NCBI GenBank assembly: GCA_964522665.1 | Contig: CAZFVY010000008.1 | Coordinates: forward strand, 29,655 to 93,654 | Direction of reading: 5' to 3' | Length of the DNA stretch: 64,000 bases | Origin: an uncultured Verrucomicrobiota bacterium | Lineage (GTDB): Bacteria > Verrucomicrobiota > Verrucomicrobiia > Limisphaerales > CAZFVY01 | In this document: one piece after another, positions 2,657 through 63,059 of the stretch | How positions within the stretch are numbered: position 1 is the first letter of the stretch | How the letters are laid out: every line of letters begins with the position of its first letter | Notes under the pieces: model-generated | The model's input: the letters and a program-made list of their open reading frames with translations, nothing else | The model's database searches: none | Told to the model about the DNA's origin: nothing | Position numbers and translations under genes: made by a program

Positions 2657-2890
2657 CGCCGCCAGTTCTCGTAACAATCATAGTCTTGCTTGGAAAATCC
2701 GACCCGCTCGCCCTCGAACGCGGTGGATTGATCGTTGTTGTCTCTACCGGATTGGCTTGGCGCAAGGCAAGAGTTAAACTTGGGTGAGCTGCCTTGGCCT
2801 AAACGGAAATCAACGCCGCCGCAATGTCTTCGGAATCGCAGTCGTGGGAAATAGCTGCGTTTGCCGCCAGAATCTGGCAGGATTTCGACG

Positions 2891-9382: not shown

Positions 9383-9724
9383 CCTCAAAAAGTTTATCGC
9401 ATTCAAATCGCGCTATCATTTGAAGCATAATTTGACGTTCGGTTCAAATCGAAAAGGACGCCTTTCTTCCGCTCGCGGGTCTGGCGCGCCCGTGGCGGAC
9501 GCGAGAAAGCCCGATAACTCGCAATACCCCGCAGCGCCAGCCCAGCGTCCGAGTTCGGCGCGTGCGCCTCGGAAGGCGGCAAGCGCCAGACGCACGCTCG
9601 CGTTGCCGTTCATCCCATTCCGTCCCATCCATTCGCATTCTCTCGCATTGCTTCCCCGGCGAGGCCGGGCGACTCCCGCCAACTTCAAGCTGCAAATCCG
9701 CGTGGGTTGGAGTAGGCTCGCGCC

Positions 9725-10591: not shown

Positions 10592-10690
10592 CACCGTCAC
10601 CGAGCAGCTCGGGTGGGGTGTCGGCGGTTCTCTAAAACGGGCGAGCGTCGCCTCGTTTCAACCGCTGAGCCGGTGTCGCCGGCGGCGGCG

Positions 10691-12868
10691 TTACGCTCGC
10701 ATCGCGCCAATCGCCGGGTCGGTTTTGCTGGGGCGGTTGGTCTCCAGGTGACCGGCAAACTGCCGCAAGAACTGAGCGTCGCCCGCCAGCGTCACTGACA
10801 GATCGTACCAGTGATCGGACGCGGCCAAGTCCCAGATGTCGCGCGCACTGGCTCCCGCGGCGACCCGAATCGCGCGCCGCCACGCCTGGCCGCCTGCGAC
10901 GCGATATGGCTCGGCCAGCGTGATTTCAAAATCGCACGGGGACGCTCCGCGATTCTCCAGAATTAGCGTCACCTGCCCAGCGGCGGCGGCGTATTCGAGT
11001 CGGATGTCCGCGCTCTGAACCGCGGCGCCCGCCGCAACATCACCGCGGAAGCGGCGGAAGAATCCGTTGGGGCCGTGCAGGCTGAGATCGAGCGCCGAAA
11101 GCGTTGAAGCGTCGTGCCATTGGCTCGTCGAGTAGTTCTGCCCGCTTCCGATGGTATAACGCCACGGTCCGCCACGGTCGGTATTATCATACACTTGGAA
11201 CGCGACCCCGGCGGTTCCAGCGTTGGCCATTTCAATCCAGAATTTGCCGTCGGTTACGCGGCCGTGGGCGTGAAGCTCGTAGGGGAGCGGCCGCGCGGGG
11301 CGTTGAGCGGCGTCCTGCGCGGTCGGCGCCTGTCGCGTCGGAATCGTCAGCTTTGCCGCGGCGCGCGACCGGGCCACGCGTTGGAGAAAGTCCGCCGTGC
11401 TGGGCAGATTGAGGCCGGTCCAATCCTGATTGGGCGTGTGGAAATCGAACGTGGAAGTCAAATCCCCACAAATGGTTCGGCGCCAGTCGCTGATGTTCTC
11501 CTCGCGCACGCCGAAGCGCCGTTCCAGAAACCGCAGCGTGGAAGTGTGATCGAAGACCTCCGAGCAAACCCACCCGCCGCGCGACCACGGCGAAACGATG
11601 ATCGCGGGCACCCGCATCCCCAAGCCGACCGGATGCGCGCCTAAGTTGGAGAATTTGCGATCCCGGTACTCCTTCGCTTCCCCGGCGACGGAAACCGTGC
11701 TGTAACCTTCGCTTGGATGCAAGGGCGGCAGCGGCGGCGGCAGGTGGTCGAAGAACCCGCCGGTTTCGTCGTAGTTGATGATAAACGCGGTCTTGGCGAA
11801 CATTTCGGGATGGTCCACGAGCGCCTCGATGAGTTGGGCGCAAATGTGTTCGCCTTTTGACGGCTCGTGCTCGGGGTGCTCAGAAAGCTCGGCCGCGGTA
11901 ACGATCCAGGAGACTTGCGGAAGTTGTCCCGACGCGAGGTCCGCGCGAAAGGCGGCGACCAGTTGCTCGCCGTCGGAGCGTTTGCAGTCGCGGCCGTTGG
12001 GGATGTGCTCCGACACCCATGAGCGGCCCCGGCGGTAGAGCGGTGAATTCTTATCGCTCATTCCCCGGAAAGGCGCGAATACGGAAAGCAGGTTGTCCTG
12101 AAAATTGTCGTATTCCTGATATACCTTCCAACTGATCCCCCGCTCTTCCAGCCGCTCCGGGTAAGTTTTCCAGGGCAACGGACCACGAGGGAGCGGCTTG
12201 TCGGTCGCCATGTCGGACGTCGGCGTTTGGGCCTCGCCATAGTTGTCCATCTCGGGATCGCCGAGCGCCTTGCCGCCGCCGTTGCAACCAGTCCAGAGGT
12301 GCATCCGATTGGGATAGGTTTGCGTCAACGTCGAGCAATGATAGTGGTCGCAAATCGTGAACGCGCTCGCCAGCGCGTAGTAGAACGGCAGGTCCTTCGC
12401 CGTGTAATGGACCATGCGCTGGTGCAATTCCTGGCTGTGGCCCCATTGATCAAACTTGCCGCCATTCAGAATTGTCAGACTCGCCTGATGCCCTTGGTTC
12501 GAGCCATCCACTCGAAAAGATCGCGTCGCGGACGAATCACCGTGGAACGGCATCACGTAGCCGTCCGGGTGCTGCGCGCCGGGTTGCCGCCAAACCGACG
12601 CGCCGCCCGGCAAGCGGATCGCGCGCGGGTCGCCGAAACCGCGCACGCCATTCAAGGCCCCAAAATAGTGGTCGAACGAGCGATTCTCCTGCATGAAGAT
12701 CACGACGTGCTCGACGTCCATGATCGAGCCGGTCGCGTTGTTCGCGGGCACCGCGAGCGCCCGTCGAACCGTGACGGGGATGAGTGACAGCGCGGAGCCT
12801 GCGGCGACCGCCCCCGCGGTGAGCTTGAGGAAACGACGCCGGTGAATGGGCGGTCCAGAAAAATTCAT
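10691..12868 (-). CDS. phosphocholine-type (non-haemolytic) phospholipase C / phosphoesterase family, Tat-secreted
   Basis: Twin-arginine signal MNFSGPPIHRRRFLKLTAGAVAAG and the phosphoesterase motif VVIFMQENRSFDHYFG. Length ~725 aa with a duplicated C-terminal domain. The ATG at 12868 is preferred over the ORF start at 12913. Confidence 0.85.
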   Translation of the reverse strand: MNFSGPPIHRRRFLKLTAGAVAAGSALSLIPVTVRRALAVPANNATGSIMDVEHVVIFMQENRSFDHYFGALNGVRGFGDPRAIRLPGGASVWRQPGAQHPDGYVMPFHGDSSATRSFRVDGSNQGHQASLTILNGGKFDQWGHSQELHQRMVHYTAKDLPFYYALASAFTICDHYHCSTLTQTYPNRMHLWTGCNGGGKALGDPEMDNYGEAQTPTSDMATDKPLPRGPLPWKTYPERLEERGISWKVYQEYDNFQDNLLSVFAPFRGMSDKNSPLYRRGRSWVSEHIPNGRDCKRSDGEQLVAAFRADLASGQLPQVSWIVTAAELSEHPEHEPSKGEHICAQLIEALVDHPEMFAKTAFIINYDETGGFFDHLPPPLPPLHPSEGYSTVSVAGEAKEYRDRKFSNLGAHPVGLGMRVPAIIVSPWSRGGWVCSEVFDHTSTLRFLERRFGVREENISDWRRTICGDLTSTFDFHTPNQDWTGLNLPSTADFLQRVARSRAAAKLTIPTRQAPTAQDAAQRPARPLPYELHAHGRVTDGKFWIEMANAGTAGVAFQVYDNTDRGGPWRYTIGSGQNYSTSQWHDASTLSALDLSLHGPNGFFRRFRGDVAAGAAVQSADIRLEYAAAAGQVTLILENRGASPCDFEITLAEPYRVAGGQAWRRAIRVAAGASARDIWDLAASDHWYDLSVTLAGDAQFLRQFAGHLETNRPSKTDPAIGAMRA

Positions 12869-15189: not shown

Positions 15190-16047
15190 TCAATTCCGCT
15201 TGGTTGAGGTCCGCTCGGCGAGCCAAATCACGTCCGGGTTATTTGGTGAGGCGTAGTTCAACTGCAGATTGTTGTTATAATGAATGGGCGGTTTGGTGCG
15301 CGCGTCCAGCCAGCGGCGAATTTGGGCGTGGCCGTCGGCGAAGGAGATGCCCGCCGCGCCGTTGTGATAGGCGGCCGGAACGTCGATCACCCGCGCCGCG
15401 GCCGGATTTTCGACCATTTGATTCGCAAAACCGCCAGCGTTGATCCCGTCCGGATGTTCGTCCAGCAACACGAACAGCCCCGAGGGTCCGGGCGTGGTCA
15501 TGTCGCTGGTCTTCAGGTAGGTCTGGTAGGTCTTTTGCTGGTCGTTGTAGTTTGGTGGCGCCAGCCAACCGCCCGGCCCACCGAAGGCCTGGCTCATGCT
15601 CATGCTGCGCACGCGGGGATAGACGTTCGCGCCAAATTTTACCGTGCTTCGATCCGCCGGGCACTTGTAAACCCCGGCGGCGTGCAAATAAGGGCCGAAG
15701 GCCGCGTATTTCGGGTCGATCAAATAAAGGATGTTCGTGTTATCGGGGCTCGAATAATCGAGCCAACCCCAGACCCAGGCATGCGGCTCGGTCCCCGTGT
15801 TGCCGGGCGCCGTCACGTAGCCGTTATTATCGTCGGCGTACATGATCCAGACCACCTGCAACTGCTTCAAATTGCTCATGCACTGAATCCCCTGCGCCTT
15901 TGTCTTGGCCTTGCCCAAGGCGGGCAACAGCATGCTCGCCAAAATCGCGATGATCGCGATCACGACCAGCAGTTCGATCAGGGTAAACCCATCGCGGCGG
16001 AGGTAACGCCTCTTGCCGCCGTCAGAATTGGCGCGGTTCAGCATCAT
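15190..16047 (-). CDS. prepilin-type N-terminal cleavage/methylation-domain protein (H-X9-DG / DUF1559-like pseudopilin)
   Basis: N-terminal [33 protein letters not shown] and C-terminal H-x9-DG-like motif ([15 protein letters not shown]). The start was chosen at MMLNRAN (16047); the ORF extends to 16131. Confidence 0.8.
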
Positions 16048-16127
16048 AAAGGAGAGTGCGGTAATCATTACCGGAAGGGGCAAGTATTGGCCAGCAGAAT
16101 CGACCGCAAAATCGGCTAACAAAAGGA

Positions 16128-16607
16128 TCACTTCTTAATCGCGTTGAACTGTTCCCGGATCGCTTCAACTCGCCGCCGGTTGACGCCGTAGTCGGAAGTT
16201 CCCACGCGGGAGGCTGAGCGAACTTGAATGACGGCGCCCGTGGCGAAAAACTCGACGTCATCGGCGAATCGAAAAAACGCGCTGCGGAATTCGGCGCGCA
16301 GGTAGCCATTCGTTTCGAGGACGAGCGTGGCCCGCGGTTGATGGCGCAGCACCTCTTTTAATGAGGCAAGCGCCGGCGCGGAGGGGCCGGTAAAATGGAG
16401 CGGTTCGATCAAGTGTCGGCGGTCCTCGCTCTCGCTCGAAACGCAGTTCGGCGAATCGGGACAGCCAGCGAGTCTTCCGCCTTGCAACCCCAAATCGGTC
16501 GGCGCGGACGAAAACCCGTTAAACGCGATCAAGCCAACGACGAGCAGCGCCGGAACGATGACGGCCGCTCGCGCCATCCGACCAATAATTCCCATTCGCC
16601 CCGCCAT
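16128..16607 (-). CDS. DUF1499-family protein
   Basis: N-terminal anchor followed by [11 protein letters not shown] and the RFADDVEF pattern typical of DUF1499; 159 aa. Confidence 0.55.
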
Positions 16608-24600: not shown

Positions 24601-24739
24601 ACTCTCGGAAAGCGCCGAGTTTCTGCGCCGGCAGGCCCGGAGCTACGCCGCCGATTCGCGGCCCGACGCGAACGCGCTGGCGCTGGTCGATTTTGCCCAA
24701 GTCCTTTTCGGCTTGAACGAATTCATCTATGAAAACTGA
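21605..24739 (+). CDS. PSCyt (CxxCH) / DUF1549 / DUF1553 protein, second copy
   Basis: CIECHGAEKKKGGLDLSTREG, IGCARCHDHKYDP and a different central insert (NPSSGWAVDGQIGKDHAAAFKFERP, jelly-roll-like). Confidence 0.85.
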   Translation: MTQTIRQFNRRHLGVALAVAALFTTAARARDRIGVPEDHPRRIEHGLRLFQQYVRGLLTTKCIECHGAEKKKGGLDLSTREGLLKGGDDGEVIIPFNADQSRLLRLLRHEEEPYMPNKKAALAREQIAKITEWIDDGAPYDKPLVDRPTLTRDRSVVTDEDRRWWAFQPLTRPKPPQIDAAPVKPQNPIDQFILSKAAGMALSPVADRRTLARRAYLDLLGLPPSPDEVETFTRDESPDAWPRLIDQLLASPRYGERWARYWLDVARFAESSGFEHDYDRPGAFQFRDFVIRALNDDLPFDQFARWQLAGDEFAPDDPLALTATGFLGAGVFPTQITANEVERTRYDALDDMLATTGSAFLGLTIGCARCHDHKYDPIPTRDYYRMLSAFTATVRSVVDLDVEPGRTHRLVEKWAADYVPLLTDLNHYEAALQPRFEAWLASGARNLAEARWATLNVTTLTSKTGATFKRLADGSFLAEGKNGDQDEYILTGLASGPRLAGLRLDALADASLPKSGPGRAENGNFGLSRVRVFCAAGGTNEAQEIPLTGPRADFEQNTSNLSIASSLDDNPSSGWAVDGQIGKDHAAAFKFERPIDAPTGASLTVTLEFRVNTRHNLGRFRVSTSAREDAGLKEEALPASIAALLARAKAGGAAETWSAAERASLFGWWKRSDPGWAERSARLERHRATQPTGLTKALICAEGHEPLRYHSQGADFFKETYYLKRGNTDLKDGVATEGFLQALMRGADGPSRWQWNPPPGALYSGRRRSLANWLTDTDHGAGNLLARVAVNRLWQHHFGRGIVPTPNDFGHAGDPPSHPELLDWLAGQLIDHQWKLKSMHRLLMTSATYMQACVHDPRKESADPDDHLFVRRAPQRLEGEAIRDAMLSVSGQLDPAMFGPGTKDERSRRRSIYFTIKRSQLVGSMVVFDQPEPLVSQGARPTTTVAPQALLLMNSPQVRDWADALARRMRRETADVNDLAALTRRGYALTLGRPPTPDELSESAEFLRRQARSYAADSRPDANALALVDFAQVLFGLNEFIYEN

Positions 24740-26195
24740 ACCGACCCTGCCCCACGGTTTTCACGCCGCGATGAGCCGGCGTGAACTTCTGCAAAAGGCG
24801 GGCGGCGGATTGGGCTGGCTCGCGCTGGCGTCGATGTTTGATCGCGCGGGATTGGTGGCCGCCGCGGCGCCGTCGCTGAATCCGTTGGCGCCGAAAAGTC
24901 CGCGGTTCAAGCCGCGGGCCAAGGCGGTCATCTGGCTCTTCATGAACGGCGGCCCGAGTCAGGTTGATACGTTCGACTACAAACCGGGGCTGGCCAAATT
25001 CGACGGCAAAAAGCTCGACGGCTTCGACAATAAAACGGGCTTCTTTCAGGACGCGGTCGGTCCGTTGATGAAATCACCATTCGACTGGCGCCAGCATGGG
25101 CAAAGCGGGACGTGGGTCAGCAGTCTGTTTCCGCACTTGGCCCGGCACGTCGATAAGATGGCGTTCATTCACTCCTGTTGGACGCAATCGAACAATCATA
25201 GCCCCGCGCTCTTCATGATGAACACGGGCGTCACGCGCATGGGCTATCCCTGCGTCGGTTCGTGGGTGACGTACGGCCTCGGGTCCCAATGCGACAATCT
25301 GCCCAGCTTCGTCGTGATGAGCGACCCGCTCAATCGCGGCCTGCCGAAAGGCAACGCGCTGAATTGGGGCGCCGGTTTCCTGCCGACCGTCTATCAGGGC
25401 ACGTGGCTGCGCCCGCAAGGCGAGCCGATCGATAATCTGAAACGTCCCGCGGCGCTGACCGACGAGCGGCAGCGGGCGCAACTCGACCTGCTGGCCCGGC
25501 TGAATCAACGTCAGGCGGAGAACTCGCCGGTCGAAAGCGAACTGGCGGCGCGCATCGAAAGTTTTGAACTCGCCTACCGGATGCAGACCGCGGCGCCCGA
25601 GGCGTTCGAGGTAAAAAGCGAACCGGAGCACATCCAGAAGCTCTATGGCCTTGACCAAAAACATTGCGCCCACTTCGCCGCGCAATGCCTGATGGCGCGC
25701 CGCATGGTTGAGCGGGGCGTCCGCTTCGTGCAGATTTATTCCGGAGGGATGGACAACCAGCTTAGTTGGGATTGCCACGGAGATCTCGTGGGCAATCACG
25801 GCGGCTTCGCCCGCGAGACGGATCAGCCGGTCGCCGCGCTGTTAGCCGACCTCGAACAGCGCGGCCTCCTCGAAGACACTTTGGTCATTTGGGGCGGTGA
25901 ATTCGGCCGCCTCCCGCTTTCCCAAAAAGGCGACAAACCGGGGCGCGATCATAACCCGCACGCCTTCACCGTCTGGCTCGCCGGCGGCGGCGCTCGTGGG
26001 GGAACCCACTATGGTGAGACCGACGAGATCGGCTTCAAGGCCGCGGTGGACAAAGTCCACGTCCGCGATTTTCACGCGACGATCCTGGCCGCGCTCGGCT
26101 TGGAACACCGCAATCTCACCTTCCGCTTTCAGGGGCTAGACCAGCGCCTGACGGGCGTCGAAGAAGCCCGCGTGGTTCACGAAGTCCTCGCCTGA
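24729..26195 (+). CDS. DUF1501 protein, second copy, Tat signal
   Basis: MSRRELLQKAGGGLGWLALA, GGPSQVDTFDYKP, GRDHNP and RLTGV. The track start at 24729 overlaps the upstream gene by 11 nt; an alternative ATG lies at 24771. Confidence 0.85.
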   Translation: MKTEPTLPHGFHAAMSRRELLQKAGGGLGWLALASMFDRAGLVAAAAPSLNPLAPKSPRFKPRAKAVIWLFMNGGPSQVDTFDYKPGLAKFDGKKLDGFDNKTGFFQDAVGPLMKSPFDWRQHGQSGTWVSSLFPHLARHVDKMAFIHSCWTQSNNHSPALFMMNTGVTRMGYPCVGSWVTYGLGSQCDNLPSFVVMSDPLNRGLPKGNALNWGAGFLPTVYQGTWLRPQGEPIDNLKRPAALTDERQRAQLDLLARLNQRQAENSPVESELAARIESFELAYRMQTAAPEAFEVKSEPEHIQKLYGLDQKHCAHFAAQCLMARRMVERGVRFVQIYSGGMDNQLSWDCHGDLVGNHGGFARETDQPVAALLADLEQRGLLEDTLVIWGGEFGRLPLSQKGDKPGRDHNPHAFTVWLAGGGARGGTHYGETDEIGFKAAVDKVHVRDFHATILAALGLEHRNLTFRFQGLDQRLTGVEEARVVHEVLA

Positions 26196-26270: not shown

Positions 26271-28565
26271 CTACGGCAAGTACGCGCGAAAGAAACGGGA
26301 GCCGGGCGAACTGGATTGCGGATCGATGAAGATCAGGTCGGTGAAAGCGTTGTTGGTCCAAACCGGGGTCCAATTCACCAGGTCGGTTGAACTTTCGACC
26401 ACCACTGATCCGCCGACCGGCCCGGCGAGCATGAATCTGAATTGGCCATTATAAAAGCCCAAGGATGGTCCGCTCGTGATGATCAGCCGGGCCAGCGACC
26501 CGGGCGGCGGGGGAACCTCGTGTCCCGACCGAATCAGGTTGTTCCCGTCGTCAGCGATGTAAACTGTTCCCGAGGCGTCCACGGCCACGCCCGTCGGATA
26601 AGAGAACCGCGCGGCGCTACCGACGCCATCCGCGTCACCGAGATTCGCGGTGAGTCCCGCGAGGGTTGACGTATGGCCGTCCGCCGTGATTTTGCGAAGT
26701 TTGGCGCCAAGACTCTCGGTCACGTAAACGTTCCCCGATCGGTCCACGGCCACCCCAATCGGTTCCCAAAAGAGCGCGTCGGCTACGGTCCCATCCTTCG
26801 TCCCGGTTACACCCGCCTGGCCGGCCAGCGTGGTCACGTCTCCCGCCGCGGTGATCTTCCGAATGACCTGACTGCCCGAATCGGCGACATACAGGTTGCC
26901 GGGCGAGTCGGCCGCGATGCCGAAGGGCCGGTTGAAGAGCGCCTGATCGCCCGTTCCATCAGCCCAGCCAAAGACGCCGGCCACGCCTGCCAGCGTTGTC
27001 ACCAGGCCATCGGGCGTTACCTTCCGAATGGTGTGGTCAACAAAATCGGTGACATAGACGTTGCCAGCGCCGTCCACCGCGACGCCCCGCGGTGAGTTAA
27101 ACTGCGCGGCGCTCCCGCTTCCATCCGCGCTGCCGGCGGCGCCCGGCGAGCCGGCGAGGGTAGTCACCACGCCGCTCGGCGATATTTTCCGAATCGTGTA
27201 ATTGCCGGCGTCCGCCACGTAGAGATTGCCGGCGCTGTCCAAAGCCGCGCCTTGGGGCGAGGTGAACCGCGCGGCGCTTCCGACCCCGTCCGCGCTGCCG
27301 CTGTTTCCCGGCGATCCGGCGAACGTCGAGACGACGCCGGCCGGAGTTATCTTTCGGATCGTATTGTTCCCCGAGTCAGTCACGAAGAGATTGGTAGAGC
27401 TATCGACCGCGATGCCGAAGGGTAGGTTGAAGAGCGCGATGTTCCCCGGTCCATCAGCGTAACCCACCGTCTCGTTGCTCCCCGCCAACGTCGTCACGGC
27501 CCCAGCGGGCGTCACCTTCCGAATCGCGTTTTGGTCCGACACGATTAACGCGCCAGACGGATCCAATGCCAAACCCGCGATGATCGAAAACCGCGCGACG
27601 TTCCGGGGACCGTCCGTCGTGCCTCCTTGGCCACCTCCCCCAACCAGCGTAGTCACCGCGCCCGCCGGAGTGACCTTGCGAATCGCGTTATTGAAAATAT
27701 CTCCAACATAGAGGTTGCCCGCGGCGTCCACCGCCACGCCGGACGGAACCACGAACCGCGCGTCGGCGCCCACGCCATCAACGTAGCCCCACTGGCCCAG
27801 CGTGCCCGCAAATACTGTCACTTCCCCATTCGTCCCCACCTTTTGAATCGTGTTGTTGTTCGCCCCCGCGACATAGACATTTCCACTGACATCCACCCCG
27901 ACGCCACCATACGGAATCGGGGGCTCGGTATATTGCGGGTCGATTTGGGGCGACAAAGTCGCCAGGGTCGTCACGACTCCCGCCGCGGTCACCTCCCGGA
28001 CGACGTTGTTGGTCTGATCCAGTACAAACAGGTTGCCGAGGCGATCGACCGCGATGCCTGACGGAAGATTAAAACGCGCGTCAGAACCCACGCCATCGGA
28101 ACTCCCCTGGCGGCCAGCCAACCCGGCGAACGTCGTGACCGTACCCGTCGCGGTCACCTTCCGGATTGTGTGATCGCCGAATTCCGTCACGTAGAGGTTG
28201 CCTGCGCCGTCGATCGCGATACCAGTTGGGCCATAGAATCGCGCGCCGCTACCGGCGCCATCCACGCTGCCTTGCGCCCCGGCGACGCCCGCCAGGGTAG
28301 TCACGACGCCCGCCGGCGTGACCTTGCGAATCGTGCAGTTCCGTGAGTCCGCGACAAACGCGTTACCGGCGCCGTCCACGGCCATGCCGCGAGCGCCGAA
28401 GAAGCGCGCCGTTGCGCCTGTGCCGTCCACGCTCCCATACCCCGCGCTCCCGGCGATCGTCGTGATGGCATAGGGCGTTGGGTAATTGGTCTGGGCGGAG
28501 GATTGAAGCGCCGACACCAGAAGAACGGCGACGGCAAGAGCCGCCAAAACATAATGTTTTTTCAT
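26271..28565 (-). CDS. secreted NHL/beta-propeller repeat protein, paralogue 1
   Basis: Signal peptide MKKHYVLAALAVAVLLVSALQSSAQ, then ~13 units resembling IRKVTPAGVVTTLAG..G..GSADG.GS.ARF..P.G.AVD..GNLYV.D..N. The C-terminal module ends STDLVNWTPV...SRFFRAYLP. The ATG at 28565 lies inside track ORF ..28616. Confidence 0.8.
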   Translation of the reverse strand: MKKHYVLAALAVAVLLVSALQSSAQTNYPTPYAITTIAGSAGYGSVDGTGATARFFGARGMAVDGAGNAFVADSRNCTIRKVTPAGVVTTLAGVAGAQGSVDGAGSGARFYGPTGIAIDGAGNLYVTEFGDHTIRKVTATGTVTTFAGLAGRQGSSDGVGSDARFNLPSGIAVDRLGNLFVLDQTNNVVREVTAAGVVTTLATLSPQIDPQYTEPPIPYGGVGVDVSGNVYVAGANNNTIQKVGTNGEVTVFAGTLGQWGYVDGVGADARFVVPSGVAVDAAGNLYVGDIFNNAIRKVTPAGAVTTLVGGGGQGGTTDGPRNVARFSIIAGLALDPSGALIVSDQNAIRKVTPAGAVTTLAGSNETVGYADGPGNIALFNLPFGIAVDSSTNLFVTDSGNNTIRKITPAGVVSTFAGSPGNSGSADGVGSAARFTSPQGAALDSAGNLYVADAGNYTIRKISPSGVVTTLAGSPGAAGSADGSGSAAQFNSPRGVAVDGAGNVYVTDFVDHTIRKVTPDGLVTTLAGVAGVFGWADGTGDQALFNRPFGIAADSPGNLYVADSGSQVIRKITAAGDVTTLAGQAGVTGTKDGTVADALFWEPIGVAVDRSGNVYVTESLGAKLRKITADGHTSTLAGLTANLGDADGVGSAARFSYPTGVAVDASGTVYIADDGNNLIRSGHEVPPPPGSLARLIITSGPSLGFYNGQFRFMLAGPVGGSVVVESSTDLVNWTPVWTNNAFTDLIFIDPQSSSPGSRFFRAYLP

Positions 28566-28645
28566 TGGATTACCCGGAAGATGAACCATTCCCTTTCCAG
28601 AGCGTTGCCAACTCATACCTCAACCCACGCTCACATTCAAGCAGC
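28566..28645 (-). promoter_or_regulatory. 5' leader of NHL paralogue 1, conserved with the leader of paralogue 2
   Basis: A hand alignment of 28566-28645 against 32172-32251 gives 66/80 identical positions with no gaps, running straight into the ATG. Confidence 0.4.
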
Positions 28646-28744
28646 GAACGGGTCGAGCACGCAGACTATACACAGCGTCATAAATAATTGCGCATACAGC
28701 TCTGATGTGTTTCATTGTGGCTATGAAGCCACTGAAAATTCGAG

Positions 28745-28771
28745 GGGCTGTTTGAATGCTGGAAACAGCCC
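28745..28771 (-). terminator. candidate stem-loop terminator downstream of the pseudopilin-like gene
   Basis: A 9-bp perfect stem (gggctgttt / aaacagccc) with a 9-nt loop lies ~100 nt after the stop at 28867. On the minus strand it is followed by only a weak T-run (ctcgaattttc). Confidence 0.3.
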
Positions 28772-28866
28772 AACGAAACCCTCAGAAGGTTGTGCGGCGT
28801 TGCTTAACATGCGTATTTATTTATGACGCTCTGTATAATTCTGCATTCCAATCACGCGACGTCCGA

Positions 28867-29700
<834 letters not shown>

Positions 29701-29864
29701 CCAACGCGCAACCATACCACTCTCCCGCGCTATTTCAAGCTTGAGCCACACGCTCGGTCGCCCGCCTTGATATCCTCGCAAAATCCAAATCGAACGGCAA
29801 CTTCGGTCGATCCCAATTGAATTTCCCGGTTAGCCGCACGCGACACAAACTGCAGGCGATCCGG

Positions 29865-32171
29865 CTATTGGGATCGGGCGCGATAGAAACGCCGTGAAAA
29901 CGTGGCGCTCCGCGTGTCGATAAAACTCAGCCCGTCGATCACAAGGTTGGTTTCGATCGGGAGCCAGCTCGCCAAATCGGTCGAGGCTTCGATGACCACG
30001 GAGGAGCCGGCGGGCGCCGAAACGTTGAAGCCGAAGGAGCCACCGTCAAACCCGAGGCCGATCCCGTTCACGATTATCGGCGGCGTCGCCAGCCCTGCGA
30101 CCGGATAACCCTTCCGAATCAGGTTGTTTCCCGTGTCGGCAATGTAGATATTGCCGAGCCGATCGACCGCGATGCCGACCGGGTCCACAAAGCGCGCGGC
30201 GTTCCCGATGCCGTCCTCACTGCCGAAGGCCATGGCGCCTGCGATGGTCGTCACCACGCCATCGGGAGTGACCTTGCGAATCCGCCCGAGAGCCTCAGTG
30301 ACGAAGAGGTTGCCGGAGGCATCCACCGCCAAGCCTTGCGGACTCTCGAAGCGCGCGTTAATTCCAATCCCATCCGGCGGGCCGTAGGTCGAGCCGGCCA
30401 ATCCGGCCAAGGTCGTCACCACCCCAGCCGAGGTTATTTTACGAATGGTTTGGTTGCCGGAATCGGCGACGAAGAGATTCCCCGCGCCATCGACCGCGAT
30501 GCCAATCGGTTTGTAAAAGCGAGCGTCGCTATTGGTCCCATCATCGCTGCCAGAGAGGCCCGCCAGACCGGCCAATGTAGTCACGACACCAGCGGGCGTC
30601 ACTTTGCGAATCGTCGCGTCATCCAAGTCGGTAACGTAGATATTCCCCGCCGGGTCCACGGCCAGGCCACGGAGCGTGTTGAACTGCGCGGCGCTGCCAG
30701 TCCCATCCGCGCTGCCCGCGACGCCCGGCGAGCCAGCCACGGTGGTCACGATGTCCGCCGGTGTCAGCTTCCGAATCGTGTGATTGCCGGCGTCGGCCAC
30801 ATAGAGATTGCCCGCCTTGTCCAGCGCCGCGCCCCGGGGTGAATTGAATCGCGCGGCGCTTCCGGCGCCGTCGGCGCTGCCGCCAATCGCGACGCCAACA
30901 TCATTGAATTGAGCCGAACCAGCCAAGGTGGTCACCACGCCGGCCGGTGTCACTTTTCGAATCGTGTTGCTTTCGTACTCCGCGACAAAAATGCTCCCCG
31001 CGTTGTCCACCACGATGCCGTCGGGGCCGGAGAACAGCGCCGCTCGCCCGGTTCCGTCCGCGATTCCCAAACCTGGATCCGACCCCGCCAACGTGGTCAC
31101 TGCGGCATCCGGCGTTACCTTTCGGATCGTGTCCTCATCCGCCACATAAAGATTGCCCGCGGCATCCATCGCCATGCCGCCGGGGATTCCGAACCGCGCC
31201 TCGCTCCCCACGCCGTCTTTGAGAGCCTGATCCCCCGCGAGTCCCGCGAAAGTGCTTACGGCGCCCGCAGGCGTGATTTTGCGAATAGTCCCATTCATGA
31301 AGTCACCGACGTAGAGATTGCCACCTGGGTCCGTTACCACGCCGGCCGGCAGAATGAACCGCGCGGCGCTTCCCACGCCGTCGGCGGCGCCGGGATGTCC
31401 GACTTCTCCCGCCAAGAATGAGACCCCGCCGCTTGGCGTCACTTTTTGGACGGTGTTATTGCCCGCGCCGGAAACATAGATGTTTCCCAATTTGTCCACC
31501 GCGACCCCCGCCTCATTCATGATTTCAATACCGTCAAACAGGAAGATCGCATCGGCGTTGGTCGCCAAGGCGGCGACGGTCGTCACGGCTCCGTCTGGGG
31601 AAACCTTCCGAAGCACCGGCGGCGCTTGGTCCAAAACAAACAGGTTTCCGGCGGAGTCCATCGCGATTCCGCTGGGAGAATTAAACCGCGCTTCGTTTCC
31701 CACCCCATCGACGTATCCGGGAGGCCCGAACCGACCCGCGAAGGTCGTGACAGCGCCGGTCGGCGTGATCTTCCGAACGGTATGCTCGTCCGTCGCATAG
31801 AGGTTTCCTTGGGCATCGATCACCAAACCGTCGGGGTTAAAAAATCGAGCGGCGCTGCCGGTTCCATCGACACTCCCCTGGCTACCTACCGCTCCGGCAA
31901 ACGTCGTGACCACGCCCGCAGGCGTGACTTTTCGGATCGTCAAATTTCCGCTATCTGCCACGAAGACATTACCCGCGCTATCCACCGCGAGGCCAGTAAT
32001 GCTCTTAAAGTGCGCCTCCGCGCCCGTCCCGTCCGCGCTTCCCGGACCGGTATTTCCCGCCAGCGTGGTGATGACGTAAGGCGCCGGGTAGTTGGTTTGG
32101 GCGACGGATTCAAGGGCGAACAGAGGAAGAACAGCGACGGCAAGAGCCGCCAGAACAAAATGTTTCTTCAT
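29865..32171 (-). CDS. secreted NHL/beta-propeller repeat protein, paralogue 2
   Basis: MKKHFVLAALAVAVLPLFALESVAQTNYPAPYVITTLAG is near-identical to the paralogue 1 N-terminus. It has the same repeat unit, and the C-terminal module ends STDLASWLPI...RRFYRARSQ. Confidence 0.8.
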   Translation of the reverse strand: MKKHFVLAALAVAVLPLFALESVAQTNYPAPYVITTLAGNTGPGSADGTGAEAHFKSITGLAVDSAGNVFVADSGNLTIRKVTPAGVVTTFAGAVGSQGSVDGTGSAARFFNPDGLVIDAQGNLYATDEHTVRKITPTGAVTTFAGRFGPPGYVDGVGNEARFNSPSGIAMDSAGNLFVLDQAPPVLRKVSPDGAVTTVAALATNADAIFLFDGIEIMNEAGVAVDKLGNIYVSGAGNNTVQKVTPSGGVSFLAGEVGHPGAADGVGSAARFILPAGVVTDPGGNLYVGDFMNGTIRKITPAGAVSTFAGLAGDQALKDGVGSEARFGIPGGMAMDAAGNLYVADEDTIRKVTPDAAVTTLAGSDPGLGIADGTGRAALFSGPDGIVVDNAGSIFVAEYESNTIRKVTPAGVVTTLAGSAQFNDVGVAIGGSADGAGSAARFNSPRGAALDKAGNLYVADAGNHTIRKLTPADIVTTVAGSPGVAGSADGTGSAAQFNTLRGLAVDPAGNIYVTDLDDATIRKVTPAGVVTTLAGLAGLSGSDDGTNSDARFYKPIGIAVDGAGNLFVADSGNQTIRKITSAGVVTTLAGLAGSTYGPPDGIGINARFESPQGLAVDASGNLFVTEALGRIRKVTPDGVVTTIAGAMAFGSEDGIGNAARFVDPVGIAVDRLGNIYIADTGNNLIRKGYPVAGLATPPIIVNGIGLGFDGGSFGFNVSAPAGSSVVIEASTDLASWLPIETNLVIDGLSFIDTRSATFSRRFYRARSQ

Positions 32172-32251
32172 TGGATTACCCGGAAGACGAACAATTCCCT
32201 TTCCAGAGTGTCATCAACCTATACCTCAACCTTGGCTCAAATACAAGCGGC
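32172..32251 (-). promoter_or_regulatory. 5' leader of NHL paralogue 2, conserved with the leader of paralogue 1
   Basis: See 28566-28645: 66/80 identity by hand alignment. Confidence 0.4.
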
Positions 32252-32322
32252 CAGCGCAGCCTTCGTGCATCACCCACCCGGATGCCGCGATGATTCGCCC
32301 TCCGAAATAACCGACGGCCCCA

Positions 32323-34602
32323 CTACGGCGTACGCGCCCGATAAAATCGGGCTGAGTAAACGCCACTCTGCGGATCGCCGAACGTGAGGCTACCCGCCGG
32401 GCTGTTGGTGGAAATCGGAAGCCAGTGCGTCAAATCGGTCGAGGCTTCGATGACCAATCCATCCCCTTCCCAGCCGATCACGTTGAAACCAAATCCGCTG
32501 GCCGTGAAACCCAACGTTGGTCCCGTCACGATACTCGGCACGGCCACCGGCTGGCCCATGCGGATTTGGTTGTTTCCCGTGTCGGCGACGTAAATGTTCC
32601 CCGCGCCGTCCACGGCGATGCCGCGCGGCCCCGAAAACTGCGCCGCTCGTCCGACGCCGTCCGCGCTGCCGGGATTCCCGGCGCTTCCGGCAAGGGTCGA
32701 AACGATTCCGTCCGGCGTTATCTTGCGGACCCGGCTGGCGCCAAGCTCGGCCACATAGACATTCCCGGCGCCGTCCACCGCCACGCCGTAAGGCGCTGAA
32801 AACCGGGCGCTACTCCCCACCCCGTCCGAATCGCCCGAAATCCCCGCCGAGCCGGCCAGCGTCGTCGCCGCGCCCGTGGGGGTGATCTTCCTCACCGTAT
32901 GGTTGCCCGAATCAGCCACGTACAAATTGGCGGAGCCGTCCACCGCCACGCCGGACGGGGCGTTGAAGCGGGCGGCGGCGCCGGTGCCGTCGGCGCTGCC
33001 CGGAGCGCCAGCCAGCCCGGCGACGGTCGTCACGACGCCGGCGGTGGTCACTTGCCGGATCGTATCGTTGCCAAGATCGGCGACGAAGAGGCTGGCGACG
33101 CCGTCGAACGCAAGCCCGGCGGGATTGAGAAATCGGGCGGCACGTCCGGCGCCGTCGGCGCTGCCACCTACGCGGGGTGAACCGGCCAGCGTCGTTACCG
33201 CGCCGAACGGATCAATCATTCGAATCGTGCTATTGCCCGAGTCGGACACGTAAACGTTTCCCGAAGGATCCGCCGCCACTCCCGCGGGAGCGGTAAATCC
33301 AGCGGCAGTGCGAAATCCATCGGCGATACCGGGAAGGCCATTTCCACTCCCCGCCAGCTTGGTGACGCGTCCGGTCGCCGTGGATAGCTCAGTGATGAGG
33401 TTGTGGCCCGCGTCGGCGACGTAGAGATGGCCAGCGGCATCCGCGGCCACGCCAGACGGACCTTTGAATCCCCCGATCGAATCACCGTTGTCCCTCCCTG
33501 CTAAAGTGGTCACGTCACCCGCCAGAGTAACGCGACGAACGGAATCCTCGTCGGTCACGATGAGGGCGTCCGAACCAGCCAGCGCGACGCCGCGCGGACC
33601 GAAAAACCGGGCTTCACTACCGGATGCGTCCGTGCTGCCATAGGCCCCGGGCCACCCCGCCAGCGTCGTCACGTCGCCGGACGGCGCTACCATGCGGATC
33701 GTATAGTTCAGCAACTCGCCAACGTAGAGGTTCCCGTTCGAATCCACGGCCACTCCGGTAGGAAACTGAAATCGCGCTTCGCTTCCCCGCCCGTTCGCGC
33801 TACCCCACTGGCCCAATTTTCCCGCGAACACCGACACCACACCGTCCGACGTCACCTTCTGGATGGTGTTGTTCCCCGCGCCCGAGACATAGACGTTTCC
33901 CGCATTATCCACCGCCACGCCGCAATAATGATAATCCGGTGGCAAACCAGGTGTAGGAATGGAATACTGCGGGTCAATCTCGGTCGCGAGCGCGGCTAGC
34001 GTCGTCACCACTCCCGCCGGCGTGACTTTTCGAATGACGGGCGCAGCCTGATCGACCAAAAAAAGATTCCCGGCGGCATCCGCCGCAATGGCCGAGGGGA
34101 AATAAAAGCGCGCTTCGCTGCCCGCCCCATCCACGTCGCCGGGATGTCCGGCCAAGCCCGCGAACGTGGTGACTACACCGTCCAGGGTCACTTTCCGAAT
34201 CGTGTGGATGGTCCAATCCGTGACGTAGAGATTATCCGCTCGATCGATCGTCAAACCGGCCGGGATGTAAAACCGCGCGGCGCTGCCGGTCCCATCCGCG
34301 GCGCCAAGGTGGCCGCTTAGGCCGGCCAGGGTCGTCACGATTCCGGCGGGTGTGATCTTCCGTATCGAGTTATTGCCGGAGTCCGCCACGTACACGTTGC
34401 CAGCCCGGTCCATGGCTGTCCCGATGACGTCATAAAAGCGAGCCGTGCTGCCGGGGCCGTCCGCGCCCCCCGGACCCGCCGGGCCAGGCAAAGTTGTGAT
34501 GGCGTACGGCGTGTAGCTGGATTGGGCGAAGCTCGGCGAATCACTTAAAAGGATGGTGAGAAAGCTCAGCGCCATAAGCGCGATATATTTTTCCATCTTC
34601 AT
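32323..34602 (-). CDS. secreted NHL/beta-propeller repeat protein, paralogue 3
   Basis: Signal peptide MKMEKYIALMALSFLTILLSDSPSFAQ and the same repeat unit. The C-terminal module ends STDLTHWLPI...ARFYRARTP. The ATG at 34602 lies inside track ORF ..34650. Confidence 0.8.
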   Translation of the reverse strand: MKMEKYIALMALSFLTILLSDSPSFAQSSYTPYAITTLPGPAGPGGADGPGSTARFYDVIGTAMDRAGNVYVADSGNNSIRKITPAGIVTTLAGLSGHLGAADGTGSAARFYIPAGLTIDRADNLYVTDWTIHTIRKVTLDGVVTTFAGLAGHPGDVDGAGSEARFYFPSAIAADAAGNLFLVDQAAPVIRKVTPAGVVTTLAALATEIDPQYSIPTPGLPPDYHYCGVAVDNAGNVYVSGAGNNTIQKVTSDGVVSVFAGKLGQWGSANGRGSEARFQFPTGVAVDSNGNLYVGELLNYTIRMVAPSGDVTTLAGWPGAYGSTDASGSEARFFGPRGVALAGSDALIVTDEDSVRRVTLAGDVTTLAGRDNGDSIGGFKGPSGVAADAAGHLYVADAGHNLITELSTATGRVTKLAGSGNGLPGIADGFRTAAGFTAPAGVAADPSGNVYVSDSGNSTIRMIDPFGAVTTLAGSPRVGGSADGAGRAARFLNPAGLAFDGVASLFVADLGNDTIRQVTTAGVVTTVAGLAGAPGSADGTGAAARFNAPSGVAVDGSANLYVADSGNHTVRKITPTGAATTLAGSAGISGDSDGVGSSARFSAPYGVAVDGAGNVYVAELGASRVRKITPDGIVSTLAGSAGNPGSADGVGRAAQFSGPRGIAVDGAGNIYVADTGNNQIRMGQPVAVPSIVTGPTLGFTASGFGFNVIGWEGDGLVIEASTDLTHWLPISTNSPAGSLTFGDPQSGVYSARFYRARTP

Positions 34603-34861
34603 ACCCAATGCCAGAAAGTATCCCTTATTCTCGAGGCGCGTGCTACCCATACGTCAAAAGCACATCATTTGCAAGAGTCCGCCGAGACACCGGACGGGCC
34701 CGTGATCGCCAACGTCAAGCGGCCGGCGGCGACGAACGCCGCCTTGGTGTCCGGCGAAAGAGAAGCCTTGGCGCCCGGCCATACCGAGCGCTAGCGTAGC
34801 GCGAATCATGCGCGCCACGACCGCGAAAATCGTTTTGGCGCCGTTTATTTAGCATTATCCC

Positions 34862-35953
34862 ATGAACTCGAATATGACCCGCCGAGATTTTGTCCGCGCC
34901 GCCAGCGTTGCCACGCTCGCCGCCGCCACGCCCGCCGTTCTGGCGCAAACGAAAACGCTGACCTTCGGCCTCGTCGGCTGCGCGCACATTCACACGCCGA
35001 ATTACGTCGGCATTCTGAAGAATCGGAAGGACGTGAAGGTGAAATCGGTTTGGGATCACGACGGCCCGCGGGCGGAAATGAACGCCAAGGAACTCGGCGC
35101 GCAAACGGTGGCCCAGGCCGAGGCGATCTGGTCCGACCCGGAAATCACCGCGGTGGTCATCTGCTCGGAGACCAACCGGCATCATGATTTGGTGATCGCG
35201 GCCGCCAAGGCGGGCAAACACATGTTCGCCGAGAAGCCGCTCGGCATCACGGCCAAGGAGAGTTTCGCGATGGCGGATGCCATCGAGAAGGCGAACGTCC
35301 TTTTCACCACCGGTTACTTCATGCGCACCGACCCGAAACACCTCTTTCTCAAGGAGGAAATCGCGAAGGGTCATTTTGGCAAAATCACCCGGGCGCGCGG
35401 CTCGAATTGCCACGGCGGCTCGCTCGGCCATTGGTTCGACAAGGAATGGCGCTGGATGGCCGACCCCAAGATCGCCGGCGTCGGCGCGTTCGGCGACCTC
35501 GGCACGCACAAACTCGACATCCTGATGTGGCTGCTCGGAGACATCGATTCCGTGACCGCGCAGGTCAAGGTGGTGACCGGCAACTACGGCGATTGCGATG
35601 AGTCGGGCGAAGCGTTGATCCAATTCAAGAGCGGCGTCCTCGGCACGCTCGCGGCCGGCTGGGTGGACGTGGATGATCCGGTGCAACTCTTGATCAGCGG
35701 CACCGAAGGCCACGCGGTCGTCATGAACAATCAGCTTTACTACAACACCAAGCATGTCCCCGAAGCCGATGGCAAGGAAGCCTACCGCAAACTGCCGCCT
35801 CGGTTGCGGGAACCTATGCATCAGTTCGTGGACGCCGTCGCCGGCGACAAGAGCCAGCCGCTGGTGAAGCCGCGCGAAGCCGCCGCGCGCGTCAGCGTGA
35901 TGGAGGCAATGTATAATGCCGCCCGCCATCATAATTGGGCGAAGCCCGCGTAA
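34862..35953 (+). CDS. Gfo/Idh/MocA-family oxidoreductase with Tat signal
   Basis: MTRRDFVRAASVATLAAATPAVLAQ, then the Rossmann start FGLVGCAHIHTP; 363 aa. Confidence 0.85.
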   Translation: MNSNMTRRDFVRAASVATLAAATPAVLAQTKTLTFGLVGCAHIHTPNYVGILKNRKDVKVKSVWDHDGPRAEMNAKELGAQTVAQAEAIWSDPEITAVVICSETNRHHDLVIAAAKAGKHMFAEKPLGITAKESFAMADAIEKANVLFTTGYFMRTDPKHLFLKEEIAKGHFGKITRARGSNCHGGSLGHWFDKEWRWMADPKIAGVGAFGDLGTHKLDILMWLLGDIDSVTAQVKVVTGNYGDCDESGEALIQFKSGVLGTLAAGWVDVDDPVQLLISGTEGHAVVMNNQLYYNTKHVPEADGKEAYRKLPPRLREPMHQFVDAVAGDKSQPLVKPREAAARVSVMEAMYNAARHHNWAKPA

Positions 35954-36004
35954 GCCGCGCGGTGACCGCCCGCCCAGCGGATAGCTTCTCATCGTTAGAC
36001 GCCG

Positions 36005-48826: not shown

Positions 48827-49483
48827 TTAGGCTAACGGACCCGCTTGGCGTTTTCGTCGAGCAATTCCCTTTCCGGGGCCGCTTGAGTCTAAATCCTGGT
48901 CGATCCCCAAGATCAACACTGGAATATCGATGTTTGAAACGCCCCGCTTCTCAAGGTCCCAAACGAACTGCTCAAAGTAGCTCACTCCGCTGCTCATCTC
49001 TTCAGCCAACGTTTTGACCGGGACGATCTCAATACCAGTATCGATGTGTCCAAGGTTTTTGAAAATCGTCATTTTCGCCGCGACGTTATACACCATGAAA
49101 GAATACTTGCCGAACTGCACTTCAATTCCCAGTCTGCGCTTAATAAAGTCCATTTCTCGGAATGCCCCTCGCCGAAGGTCCTTTGGCGTGTAGCCCTGAG
49201 TGTAAAACCTCGTCGGATAGTCACATTTTACCCGCAGAGATTTCCATTCACGCTTGAAAAGTATCTCCTTGAAACATTCATTGAGGGCGACGGGAGAGAA
49301 AAGCATCGTGCCGGGCATCGATTTCTCTTTGCTTTCTTTTGTTCTGCACGCCAAGGCATCGATAGCCTTAATCGCATCTTTGACCTCCACAAGGAGGTCT
49401 GGATATATTGATTCAACTACGCTCTGCCCATCGTTAAACGAATAAATTCCGGCTATTCGCACGTTTTCTCCTCCTGTAACCAT
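48827..49483 (-). CDS. type IIP restriction endonuclease, BglII/BamHI fold
   Basis: REMDFIKRRLGIEVQFGKYSF reproduces the BglII D-x8-E-x-Q catalytic spacing (recalled BglII: DFGKRDTLVEVQF). The later IEIVPVK...IPVLILGI resembles the BglII/BamHI C-terminal strands. An alternative GTG start at 49462 is preceded by GGAGGAG. Confidence 0.6.
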   Translation of the reverse strand: MVTGGENVRIAGIYSFNDGQSVVESIYPDLLVEVKDAIKAIDALACRTKESKEKSMPGTMLFSPVALNECFKEILFKREWKSLRVKCDYPTRFYTQGYTPKDLRRGAFREMDFIKRRLGIEVQFGKYSFMVYNVAAKMTIFKNLGHIDTGIEIVPVKTLAEEMSSGVSYFEQFVWDLEKRGVSNIDIPVLILGIDQDLDSSGPGKGIARRKRQAGPLA

Positions 49484-50433
49484 TCCTTGGGAATCTGTGC
49501 CACTTTCTCGGTTCCCTTAGGCTGCCACACTGGCTTGCCCAGCGGTCGGTAGGGAAGGTCCCCGCTCAAGAGGAGGTTCATTCTGTACCTCGCCTCGTCA
49601 ACGTATTTCTGTTCGCGTTCGCAACCCATCGCCCTCCGTTTATGACGCACGGCGGCTAGCATCGCCGACCCGACCCCTGAGAAAGGGTCGAGGACCCAAT
49701 CACTCTCGTTTGTCATGGCCAGAACGCACCGTTCCACGAGTTCGATTGGAAATTGACACGGATGAATGGTTTTCTCCGGATGATTGGCTTTAACATTTGG
49801 GATACTCCAGAGGCCGACTTCCCATTCCTTGGCCATCAGTTTCCAAATGTCACTAGGGTTCTTGCCAAGGGGATTTCCAGACGGCAGTCCGTAATTGGGG
49901 CCTGGGCGAAAATTGGTTTTGCCCGGATACTTGGAAGGCACTCGAACCGGGTCCAAATTGAACGTGTACTCTTCTCCCTTGGTAAACCAGAGCAAAGTCT
50001 CGTATCGACCAGAAAACCTTACGGAACAATGCAAACCGTGATCGAATGTCCAAATAATGCGGTTACGAAGCTGGAGTCCGAGCTTCTTAAATATCGGATA
50101 AAACCAAATGTCGAGCGGGAATACCTCCGCCTTATCGACGTAATTTCCGACCTGCCAACAAAGTGAACCGCCATTCGCCAAAACACGAACCAACTGTTCC
50201 AATATTGGCTGGAGCTCGTCGAGGTAGCGTTCCAACTTCACCGCGACTTCGTACTCCTTGCCAATATTGTACGGCGGGGAAGTTATTATGAGCTTTGCGA
50301 ATCCGTCCGGGCAAGTTCTGAGCGTGTCGAAAGATTCACCGACCGCAAACACGATTTCAGCGGTCGCATCGAAACGGTCGGCGATGGCCCGACGATCTTC
50401 CTCGAACAACGACGGTTGAACTGTCTTAGACAC
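49453..50433 (-). CDS. beta-class DNA methyltransferase (SPPY motif IV; probably N4-cytosine)
   Basis: N-terminal motif IV IITSPPYNIGKEY and C-terminal motif I VLDPFSGVGSAMLAA, which is the beta permutation. It overlaps the nuclease ORF by 10-31 nt. Confidence 0.85.
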   Translation of the reverse strand: MSKTVQPSLFEEDRRAIADRFDATAEIVFAVGESFDTLRTCPDGFAKLIITSPPYNIGKEYEVAVKLERYLDELQPILEQLVRVLANGGSLCWQVGNYVDKAEVFPLDIWFYPIFKKLGLQLRNRIIWTFDHGLHCSVRFSGRYETLLWFTKGEEYTFNLDPVRVPSKYPGKTNFRPGPNYGLPSGNPLGKNPSDIWKLMAKEWEVGLWSIPNVKANHPEKTIHPCQFPIELVERCVLAMTNESDWVLDPFSGVGSAMLAAVRHKRRAMGCEREQKYVDEARYRMNLLLSGDLPYRPLGKPVWQPKGTEKVAQIPKEWLQEEKTCE

Positions 50434-63034: not shown

Positions 63035-63059
63035 GGGTTGCTCGGGGCTGAGAAAGTGA

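Follow-up and report, generated by a model that had tools for sequence, protein, structure and literature searches.

Three Predicted Secreted NHL-Propeller Proteins and a DUF1559 Pilin-like Gene in an Old Tandem Array of an Uncultured Verrucomicrobiota Bacterium

Organization of the Locus

The stretch of DNA considered here comprises 64,000 nucleotides (nt) from an uncultured Verrucomicrobiota bacterium (GenBank assembly GCA_964522665.1, contig CAZFVY010000008.1, positions 29,655 to 93,654 of the forward strand); the whole of it is called the window, and positions are counted from its first letter. Its region 26271–34650 consists, according to the listing of open reading frames (ORFs), of four genes on the minus strand: the paralogues P3 (32323–34602, 759 amino acids) and P2 (29865–32171, 768 amino acids), a DUF1559/H-X9-DG prepilin-like gene (28867–29700, 277 amino acids, or 282 if counted from the start at 29715), and the paralogue P1 (26271–28565, 764 amino acids). 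P1, P2 and P3 are built alike: a Sec signal peptide is followed by 12 NHL blades and these by a β-sandwich at the C-terminus (Pfam NHL E = 1e-56 for P1). P3 is the most diverged copy, with degenerate blades 6 and 7. Initiation at 28565, 32171 and 34602 yields aligned N-termini of the form MKKHxVLAALAVAVL / MKMEKYIALMAL; ATG codons further upstream, which would lengthen P1 and P3, lie in sequence that the copies have in common as DNA and not as a reading frame.

A first-pass annotation, made from the letters and the translated ORFs, had described three minus-strand genes that encode a signal peptide followed by units of about 55 residues, with a prepilin-like gene between copies 2 and 1 and nothing else interleaved. 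The ORFs, the aligned N-termini and the Pfam matches bear out the former, including the starts, and Pfam and NCBIfam matches the latter; no further gene was found within 26271–34650, where the antisense ORFs are without a Pfam match. The locus is essentially ordinary, in that it is composed of known kinds, namely NHL-repeat secreted proteins and a DUF1559 pilin-like gene.

Propeller Architecture

All three proteins start with a typical Sec signal lacking a lipobox cysteine, as in MKKHFVLAALAVAVLPLFALESVAQ/T (the slash marks the cleavage site), and end in RFYRAxxx without a transmembrane tail. In between lie exactly 12 blades of about 55 residues each, which appear in the DNA as a 165-nt period. 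Pfam NHL (PF01436) is matched with E = 1e-55 to 1e-63 (180–205 bits against a cut-off of 20), and TEN_NHL (PF25021) with E = 1e-42 to 1e-55 (143–186 bits against 27). The AlphaFold model of P2, built from an alignment of 11 sequences, has a mean predicted local distance difference test score (pLDDT) of 83 and displays a signal helix at residues 2–19, 12 blades (with four strands in each of the first 11 and three in the last) and a separate C-terminal β-sandwich; its confidence dips at the junction of blades 6 and 7.

Compared by Foldseek with single six-blade NHL domains, this model reaches target template-modelling scores (TM-scores) of 0.79–0.84 over ≈ 310–360 columns. The matches in the PDB, obtained with Foldseek and phmmer, include the binding-type NHL propellers of the designed protein Pizza6 (target TM-score 0.83) and of the lumenal domain of SOQ1 (0.79), as well as NHLRC2, TRIM71/Thin and the sensor domain of PknD; in sequence, a bacterial teneurin-like protein matches best, through its NHL module (PDB 9ifo/9pt5, E = 4e-41). 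The blade numbers of relatives cluster at 6, 12 and 18, which fits propeller units of six blades. Model and comparisons support a six-bladed NHL propeller fold in P1–P3, and most likely each protein would consist of two such propellers in tandem. The earlier description of roughly a dozen blades of the NHL or six-bladed type is made exact by these data, AlphaFold, Foldseek and Pfam being in agreement.

With the propellers of TEN_NHL, NHLRC2, SOQ1 and the PknD sensor the window proteins share the blade motif, the long DG-x-G-x-x-ARF loop, the six-blade fold and target TM-scores of ≈ 0.8. They differ from this type in that a single secreted chain carries two predicted propellers and then an unnamed sandwich at its C-terminus, and in the absence of partner domains of the kinase, thioredoxin, TRIM or YD-shell kind. 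Similarly, the bacterial teneurin-like proteins resemble P1–P3 in the NHL propeller, which provides the best PDB sequence match, whereas the window proteins lack an FN-plug, a YD shell and a toxin domain. The bacterial teneurin-like protein is defined by the combination of FN-plug, NHL and YD-shell in one superfold (PMC13018210); of this combination only the NHL part is matched in the window.

The C-terminal Domain

Behind blade 12 the alignments reveal a domain of about 72 residues with the motif G-x-F-x-F...E(A/S)STDLxxWxP...RFYRA. The first-pass annotation had been right about the signal peptide and the blades and had overlooked this domain. It is encoded on the minus strand at 26274–26492 in P1, where the motif reads ESSTDLxxWxP...RFFRA, at 29868–30083 in P2, and at 32326–32541 in P3, where a core of 53 nt matches its counterpart in P2 with 85% identity (repeat family D10). 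Modelled with AlphaFold from an alignment of 89 sequences, the domain is predicted with a pLDDT of 90 as a sandwich of six strands, similar to immunoglobulin (Ig) and fibronectin type III domains; a Foldseek search of the PDB with this model gave no significant neighbour (best E-value 0.03).

No Pfam family matches the domain, neither in the three window copies up to E = 10 nor in the 89 aligned relatives at E ≤ 0.01, where the only Pfam matches, NHL and SBBP, fall into adjoining propeller parts. In NCBIfam, at E ≤ 10, the sole match was at chance level (P1 to a β-1,2-mannosidase model, E = 0.16), and no Pfam or NCBIfam model of a named C-terminal sorting domain, including that of type IX secretion, was matched. 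When 1.84 billion representative proteins were searched with its profile, the domain was found at E ≤ 1e-3 in 28,267 of them, each standing for a protein cluster. The domain architectures were taken from the exhaustive search of representatives, as a word-index profile search gave only short fragments; the metagenome scan for the domain used an alignment of four sequences. Frequently, the domain occurs in 2–6 tandem copies, the last of which ends ≤5 residues from the C-terminus in 128 of the 149 best matches. It is present on 36 of the 120 best NHL homologues. Nine proteins were scanned for their passengers, which comprised a hydrolase of glycoside hydrolase family 9 (GH9), leucine-rich repeats of the BspA type, DUF5122 and RCC1 propellers, Ig domains and MBG/YDG domains. 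At a further locus (L129, 13624–15711, minus strand), a Big_5-domain protein encoded convergently with an NHL gene also bears the domain on this unrelated passenger.

Because its relatives are attached to so many other extracellular passengers, these observations suggest that the domain may be a shared anchoring, sorting or spacer module. The C-terminal domain of type IX secretion is alike by functional analogy only, being a small β-sandwich at the extreme C-terminus of many extracellular passengers; it shows neither a sequence match nor a significant fold match, and the repetition in 2–6 copies sets the window-type domain apart from secretion signals. This unmodelled and very widespread domain is the only mildly novel element of the locus.

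Age of the Duplications

Pairwise, P1, P2 and P3 are 54–59% identical in amino acids and 60–64% identical in codon-aligned nucleotides, with an identity of 40–45% at third codon positions. The most similar window of 50 codons between copies reaches 0.81, and the longest exact DNA matches measure 19–26 nt between copies and at most 19 nt within a copy. The blades inside one protein are 46–65% identical, and many are nearest to the blade at the same position of another copy. Along these lines, all three copies possess an aberrant blade 4, in which the GSADG loop is missing and an insertion is found, and a blade 6 that is two residues short. The low identity and this positional orthology of the blades point to ancient duplication without later homogenization: the array arose by old whole-gene duplications of a 12-blade ancestor and has not been homogenized since.

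A contig from a second assembly of the same population (L084; ENA ERZ27245399, k141_1481419) is collinear with 19865–42171 of the window, that is, over 22.3 kb, with 99.96% identity, 9 substitutions and no insertions or deletions. Seven of the 9 substitutions are C>A; one of them turns codon 441 of P3 from GGA into TGA, so that P3 is called there as two genes. In view of this bias towards C>A, the stop in P3 is probably the result of sequencing damage rather than a real allele.

The Pilin-like Gene

The product of the gene at 28867–29700 displays a class III signal, RAA/FTLIELLVV, with Glu at position +5 and Ala at −1. It is matched by N_methyl (28.6 bits against a cut-off of 21.2) and TIGR02532 (28.1 against 16.3), by SBP_bac_10 at profile positions 2–35 only, corresponding to the N-terminal region of DUF1559 (40.5 against 23.3), and by the H-X9-DG model TIGR04294 (28.2 against 19), the motif reading H-X9-DA here. 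An identification as GspG (TIGR01710) was rejected, the match being limited to the N-terminal helix and to 39.3 bits against a cut-off of 88.85. The methylation motif, the N-terminal region and the C-terminal H-X9-D motif are those of the DUF1559/H-X9-DG proteins (PF07596, TIGR04294) of the Planctomycetes–Verrucomicrobia–Chlamydiae (PVC) superphylum, from which the window copy differs by alanine in place of glycine at −1 and in the final DG. DUF1559 reportedly ranks with the largest gene families of Planctomycetes and seems to be confined to the PVC superphylum (PMC4807772).

The first-pass annotation had regarded the gene as an orphan, which it is not, because a second DUF1559-type prepilin-like gene lies 13 kb away at 15190–16131 on the minus strand; it has an N_methyl match, is related to the first with a phmmer E = 2e-18, and adjoins DUF1499 and PIG-L/CBM9 genes. 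A promoter-like site precedes the gene of the array at 29738–29711. Just 3' of it, at 28717–28771 on the minus strand, two hairpins of 9 and 6 bp, the first of which is followed by a short U-run, form a possible terminator (fold z = −2.7), a role that is tentative since the terminator scan made no call at this position. From the same metagenome as the second assembly described above stems a contig (L131) with a tandem cluster of four prepilin-like genes at 8867–12292, which holds a 65% identical relative (P0409) of the array's pseudopilin; the cluster is situated directly downstream of a pair of genes for Penicillinase_R (BlaI-like) and Peptidase_M56 (BlaR1-like).

Distribution of Relatives

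The NHL family is large, with more than 8000 homologues at E ≤ 1e-10 and 45–57% identity. An alignment-based scan located at least 461 genomic loci, distributed over Verrucomicrobiota, Acidobacteriota, Bacteroidota, Proteobacteria, Actinobacteria, Leptospiria and others; a scan of species-representative genomes, which apparently do not include the source genome, returned no relative with P2 alone. The best NHL relatives occur in metagenome-assembled genomes (MAGs) of Verrucomicrobia. Tandem arrays recur elsewhere: a Leptospiria MAG (L018) has five copies, an alphaproteobacterium (L034) has three, a Verrucomicrobiota MAG (L058) has three that bear the C-terminal domain, and beside the homologue P0064 there are three genes of 798, 761 and 788 amino acids. 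In view of this wide occurrence in many phyla, the earlier designation as a lineage-specific expanded family has to be abandoned. A synteny search detected no neighbour genes common to the window and any related locus.

The contigs of three relatives (P0064, P0069 and P0035, the last at locus L085) feature repeated cassettes, in which a protein of ≈ 225–260 residues and a Ser/Thr kinase of ≈ 1040–1100 residues with a WD40 domain are accompanied by 1–4 secreted propeller genes of the NHL, DUF5122 or RCC1 type. On the contig of P0069 about four such cassettes follow each other in a row. The small protein matches Sigma70_ECF only in the L085 copy, and faintly, and two target genes in L085 have an upstream motif in common. 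The window itself has no such cassette of an ECF-like gene, Ser/Thr kinase and propeller genes, and the motif of the extracytoplasmic function (ECF) type found upstream of homologues in L085 and L081 could not be found convincingly in it.

Binding Proteins, Enzymes or Partners of a Pilin

The data show P1–P3 to be anciently duplicated copies of one gene, with a signal peptide, 12 blades, the NHL propeller fold and the C-terminal domain; most likely they are exported by the Sec pathway and evolve independently. Each chain would be composed of two six-bladed NHL propellers and a small Ig-like β-sandwich at the extreme C-terminus. The propellers may act as non-catalytic ligand-binding platforms, in the manner of adhesin- or lectin-like proteins of the envelope or surface, and the C-terminal domain might serve as a shared anchoring, sorting or spacer module. 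We lean, with some caution, towards P1–P3 being non-catalytic binding or surface proteins; this is the best guess because they appear to be exported multi-propeller proteins without a recognizable catalytic family. Of the earlier proposal of multi-propeller surface or secreted binding proteins, export and propellers stand, on the evidence of signal and fold, and the binding or surface role is kept as the best guess. The pseudopilin between copies 2 and 1, one of a PVC gene family that has undergone huge expansion, is most likely a chance neighbour.

Several points weigh against this picture. The division into two propellers is a prediction derived from AlphaFold, the lengths of the Foldseek alignments and the blade counts. 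The subfamily model for ScyD/ScyE (NF033206) was formally passed, with 82–94 bits against a cut-off of 80, and ScyE has reportedly been associated with a step in the synthesis of scytonemin that takes place in the periplasm, such that an enzymatic role in the periplasm is conceivable. Finally, among ≈ 55 loci that bear the C-terminal domain, five independent cases have a pilin-like gene adjacent to the domain-bearing gene, namely the window, L001 (divergent), L097/L109 and L114 (both downstream on the same strand) and L119 (divergent), as against three pilin-like genes at all other offsets; with crude gene calls and small samples, this amounts to ≈ 5 of ≈ 75–95 genes at the adjacent position versus ≈ 3 of ≈ 300–400 at other offsets.

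The ScyD/ScyE score belongs to the alternative that P1–P3 are periplasmic or secreted propeller enzymes, similar to ScyE, to SMP-30/gluconolactonase or to streptogramin lyase, which we consider unlikely. Whole-protein scores for Pfam SGL (PF08450; SMP-30/gluconolactonase/LRE-like) amount to 60–88 bits, above the cut-off of 26, P1 attains 55 bits with Vgb_lyase (cut-off 50), and homologues carry automatic Joint Genome Institute (JGI) names such as 'sugar lactone lactonase YvrE' or 'streptogramin lyase'. These scores are, however, sums of short repeat-level matches, and this is why the automatic names should not be trusted. The hidden Markov models of enzyme families match no more than 1–1.5 blades or remain far short of their cut-offs. 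Of the 246 positions of the SGL profile, 35–75 residues are covered by the best stretch (positions 148–216 or 184–218 only, without a match to a whole propeller), and 0–1 stretches pass alone; streptogramin B lyase Vgb gave no full-length match, with 31–55 bits and partial coverage for PF24684 and 23 bits against a cut-off of 600 for Vgb(A) (NF000022). ScyD/ScyE is formally passed, with scores that add up over 3–4 partial stretches. The NHL/PEP-CTERM protein ScyF (NF035926) was matched with 150–169 bits against a cut-off of 350, and a tail of the PEP-CTERM type is absent. ScyD and ScyE are secreted NHL-type periplasmic propellers as well, but the window proteins are twice as long, their host is not a cyanobacterium, and the window offers no scy or ebo genes and neither a scytonemin nor another pathway context. 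The top PDB matches by sequence or fold include no enzyme structure, and the single consensus that runs through all 12 blades argues against one asymmetric active site. The remark of the first-pass annotation that no catalytic motif could be named agrees with these results.

More doubtful is any part of the pilin-like gene in the function of its neighbours, for which the first-pass annotation had taken its position as a hint. In one version, the C-terminal domain would be an undescribed, PVC-centred module that sorts or anchors a large set of surface proteins, and the DUF1559 pseudopilins that adjoin a minority of the genes with this domain would be part of the display route, which seems quite unlikely to us; the version in which NHL proteins and pseudopilin form a functional pair, the latter being part of a route of the type II secretion or type IV filament kind that exports or displays the domain-bearing proteins, is given slightly less credence still. 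The pilin-like gene does follow P2 on the same strand at a distance of 164 nt, and the weak excess of adjacency described above remains. On the other hand, ≈ 90% of the domain-bearing loci have no adjacent pilin-like gene, and no such gene occurs within 10 kb in seven relatives with Pfam-annotated flanks. DUF1559 belongs to the largest PVC gene families, as mentioned, and the second copy in the window stands beside unrelated genes. Conversely, the closest relatives of the pseudopilin, P0409 (see above) and P0410 (40% identity), reside in loci that encode neither an NHL protein nor the C-terminal domain. In their globular parts, the pilin-like proteins found in adjacency show no relationship to one another. 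The promoter-like site and the terminator-like hairpin of the pilin gene are its own, and the window contains no genes for type II secretion or type IV pilus machinery. Least probable by far is that the array is a contingency locus, in which recombination among repeats and copies alters repeat number or surface epitopes. Such a mechanism had been proposed on the assumption of highly similar repeats within and between the genes, and it could draw on the tandem array of paralogues built of internal repeats as well as on the variation across the family, with 1–5 copies in tandem and 6, 12 or 18 blades. The blades and copies in the window are, however, far from highly similar; the DNA comparison disclosed no near-identical tracts, all three copies have kept 12 blades together with their positional peculiarities, and the second assembly is collinear without insertions or deletions. 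The age and the divergence of the duplications do not support gene conversion or antigenic variation, and this reading is largely refuted.

Intergenic Features and Genomic Surroundings

The 5' region of P1 on the minus strand (28402–28650), which extends from about 85 nt upstream through the signal peptide into blade 1, is seen as repeat family D9 as well as in the upstream alignment and is 77% identical to its counterpart in P2 (32008–32256); a promoter or leader role is only putative. Upstream of P1–P3, the conserved region contains a TTGnAn-17-TATnnG pattern; it failed the criteria of the promoter scan and is not claimed as a promoter. The intergenic folds downstream and upstream of P2 are no more stable than those of shuffled sequence, and an Rfam search of the window gave no RNA family.

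The array is bordered by a convergent DUF1501 gene (24729–26195, plus strand) and by a divergent gene for a GFO/IDH/MocA oxidoreductase (34862–35953, plus strand), the latter with a weak match, below threshold, to a twin-arginine translocation (TAT) signal model. An ORF of 425 codons on the minus strand (34715–35992) was rejected as a gene; it has no family match and is the shadow of this oxidoreductase. The segment 16839–26195 (plus strand) holds two consecutive pairs, each of a PSCyt1/PSCyt2/PSD1 (DUF1549/DUF1553) protein and a DUF1501 protein, the first pair with an additional Laminin_G_3 domain.

Together with these two pairs and the second pilin-like gene, the window contains genes for an exosortase, for a glycoside hydrolase and for flagellar export, a gene content that is typical of the PVC superphylum and points most likely to Verrucomicrobiota. 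The exosortase, of the EpsH family, is encoded at 2861–4432 (plus strand); the NHL proteins are not obvious substrates of it, since they have no PEP-CTERM tail. In the segment 47507–55952 (minus strand), whose G+C content of 0.57–0.59 compares with ≈ 0.63 elsewhere in the window, genes for a BglII-like restriction endonuclease (48827–49483) and an N6/N4 DNA methylase (49453–50433) sit between a gene for an SRP54-type GTPase and the flagellar export genes FlhA, FlhB and FliP. An ORF of 1157 codons at 59723–63196 (minus strand) has no Pfam family at E ≤ 1e-4.

Significance

In itself the finding matters little, as it adds one more case of a very abundant and uncharacterized family of secreted NHL-propeller proteins in soil bacteria, beside a further DUF1559 pilin-like gene; a tandem layout does not by itself imply a mechanism of variation. 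More useful are two by-products, the unmodelled, strictly C-terminal domain on tens of thousands of predicted extracellular proteins and, second, the recurrent cassettes in relatives, in which a weakly ECF-sigma-like gene, a Ser/Thr kinase with WD40 and secreted propeller genes are brought together. Both could guide work on how the surface proteome of Verrucomicrobia is built and regulated.

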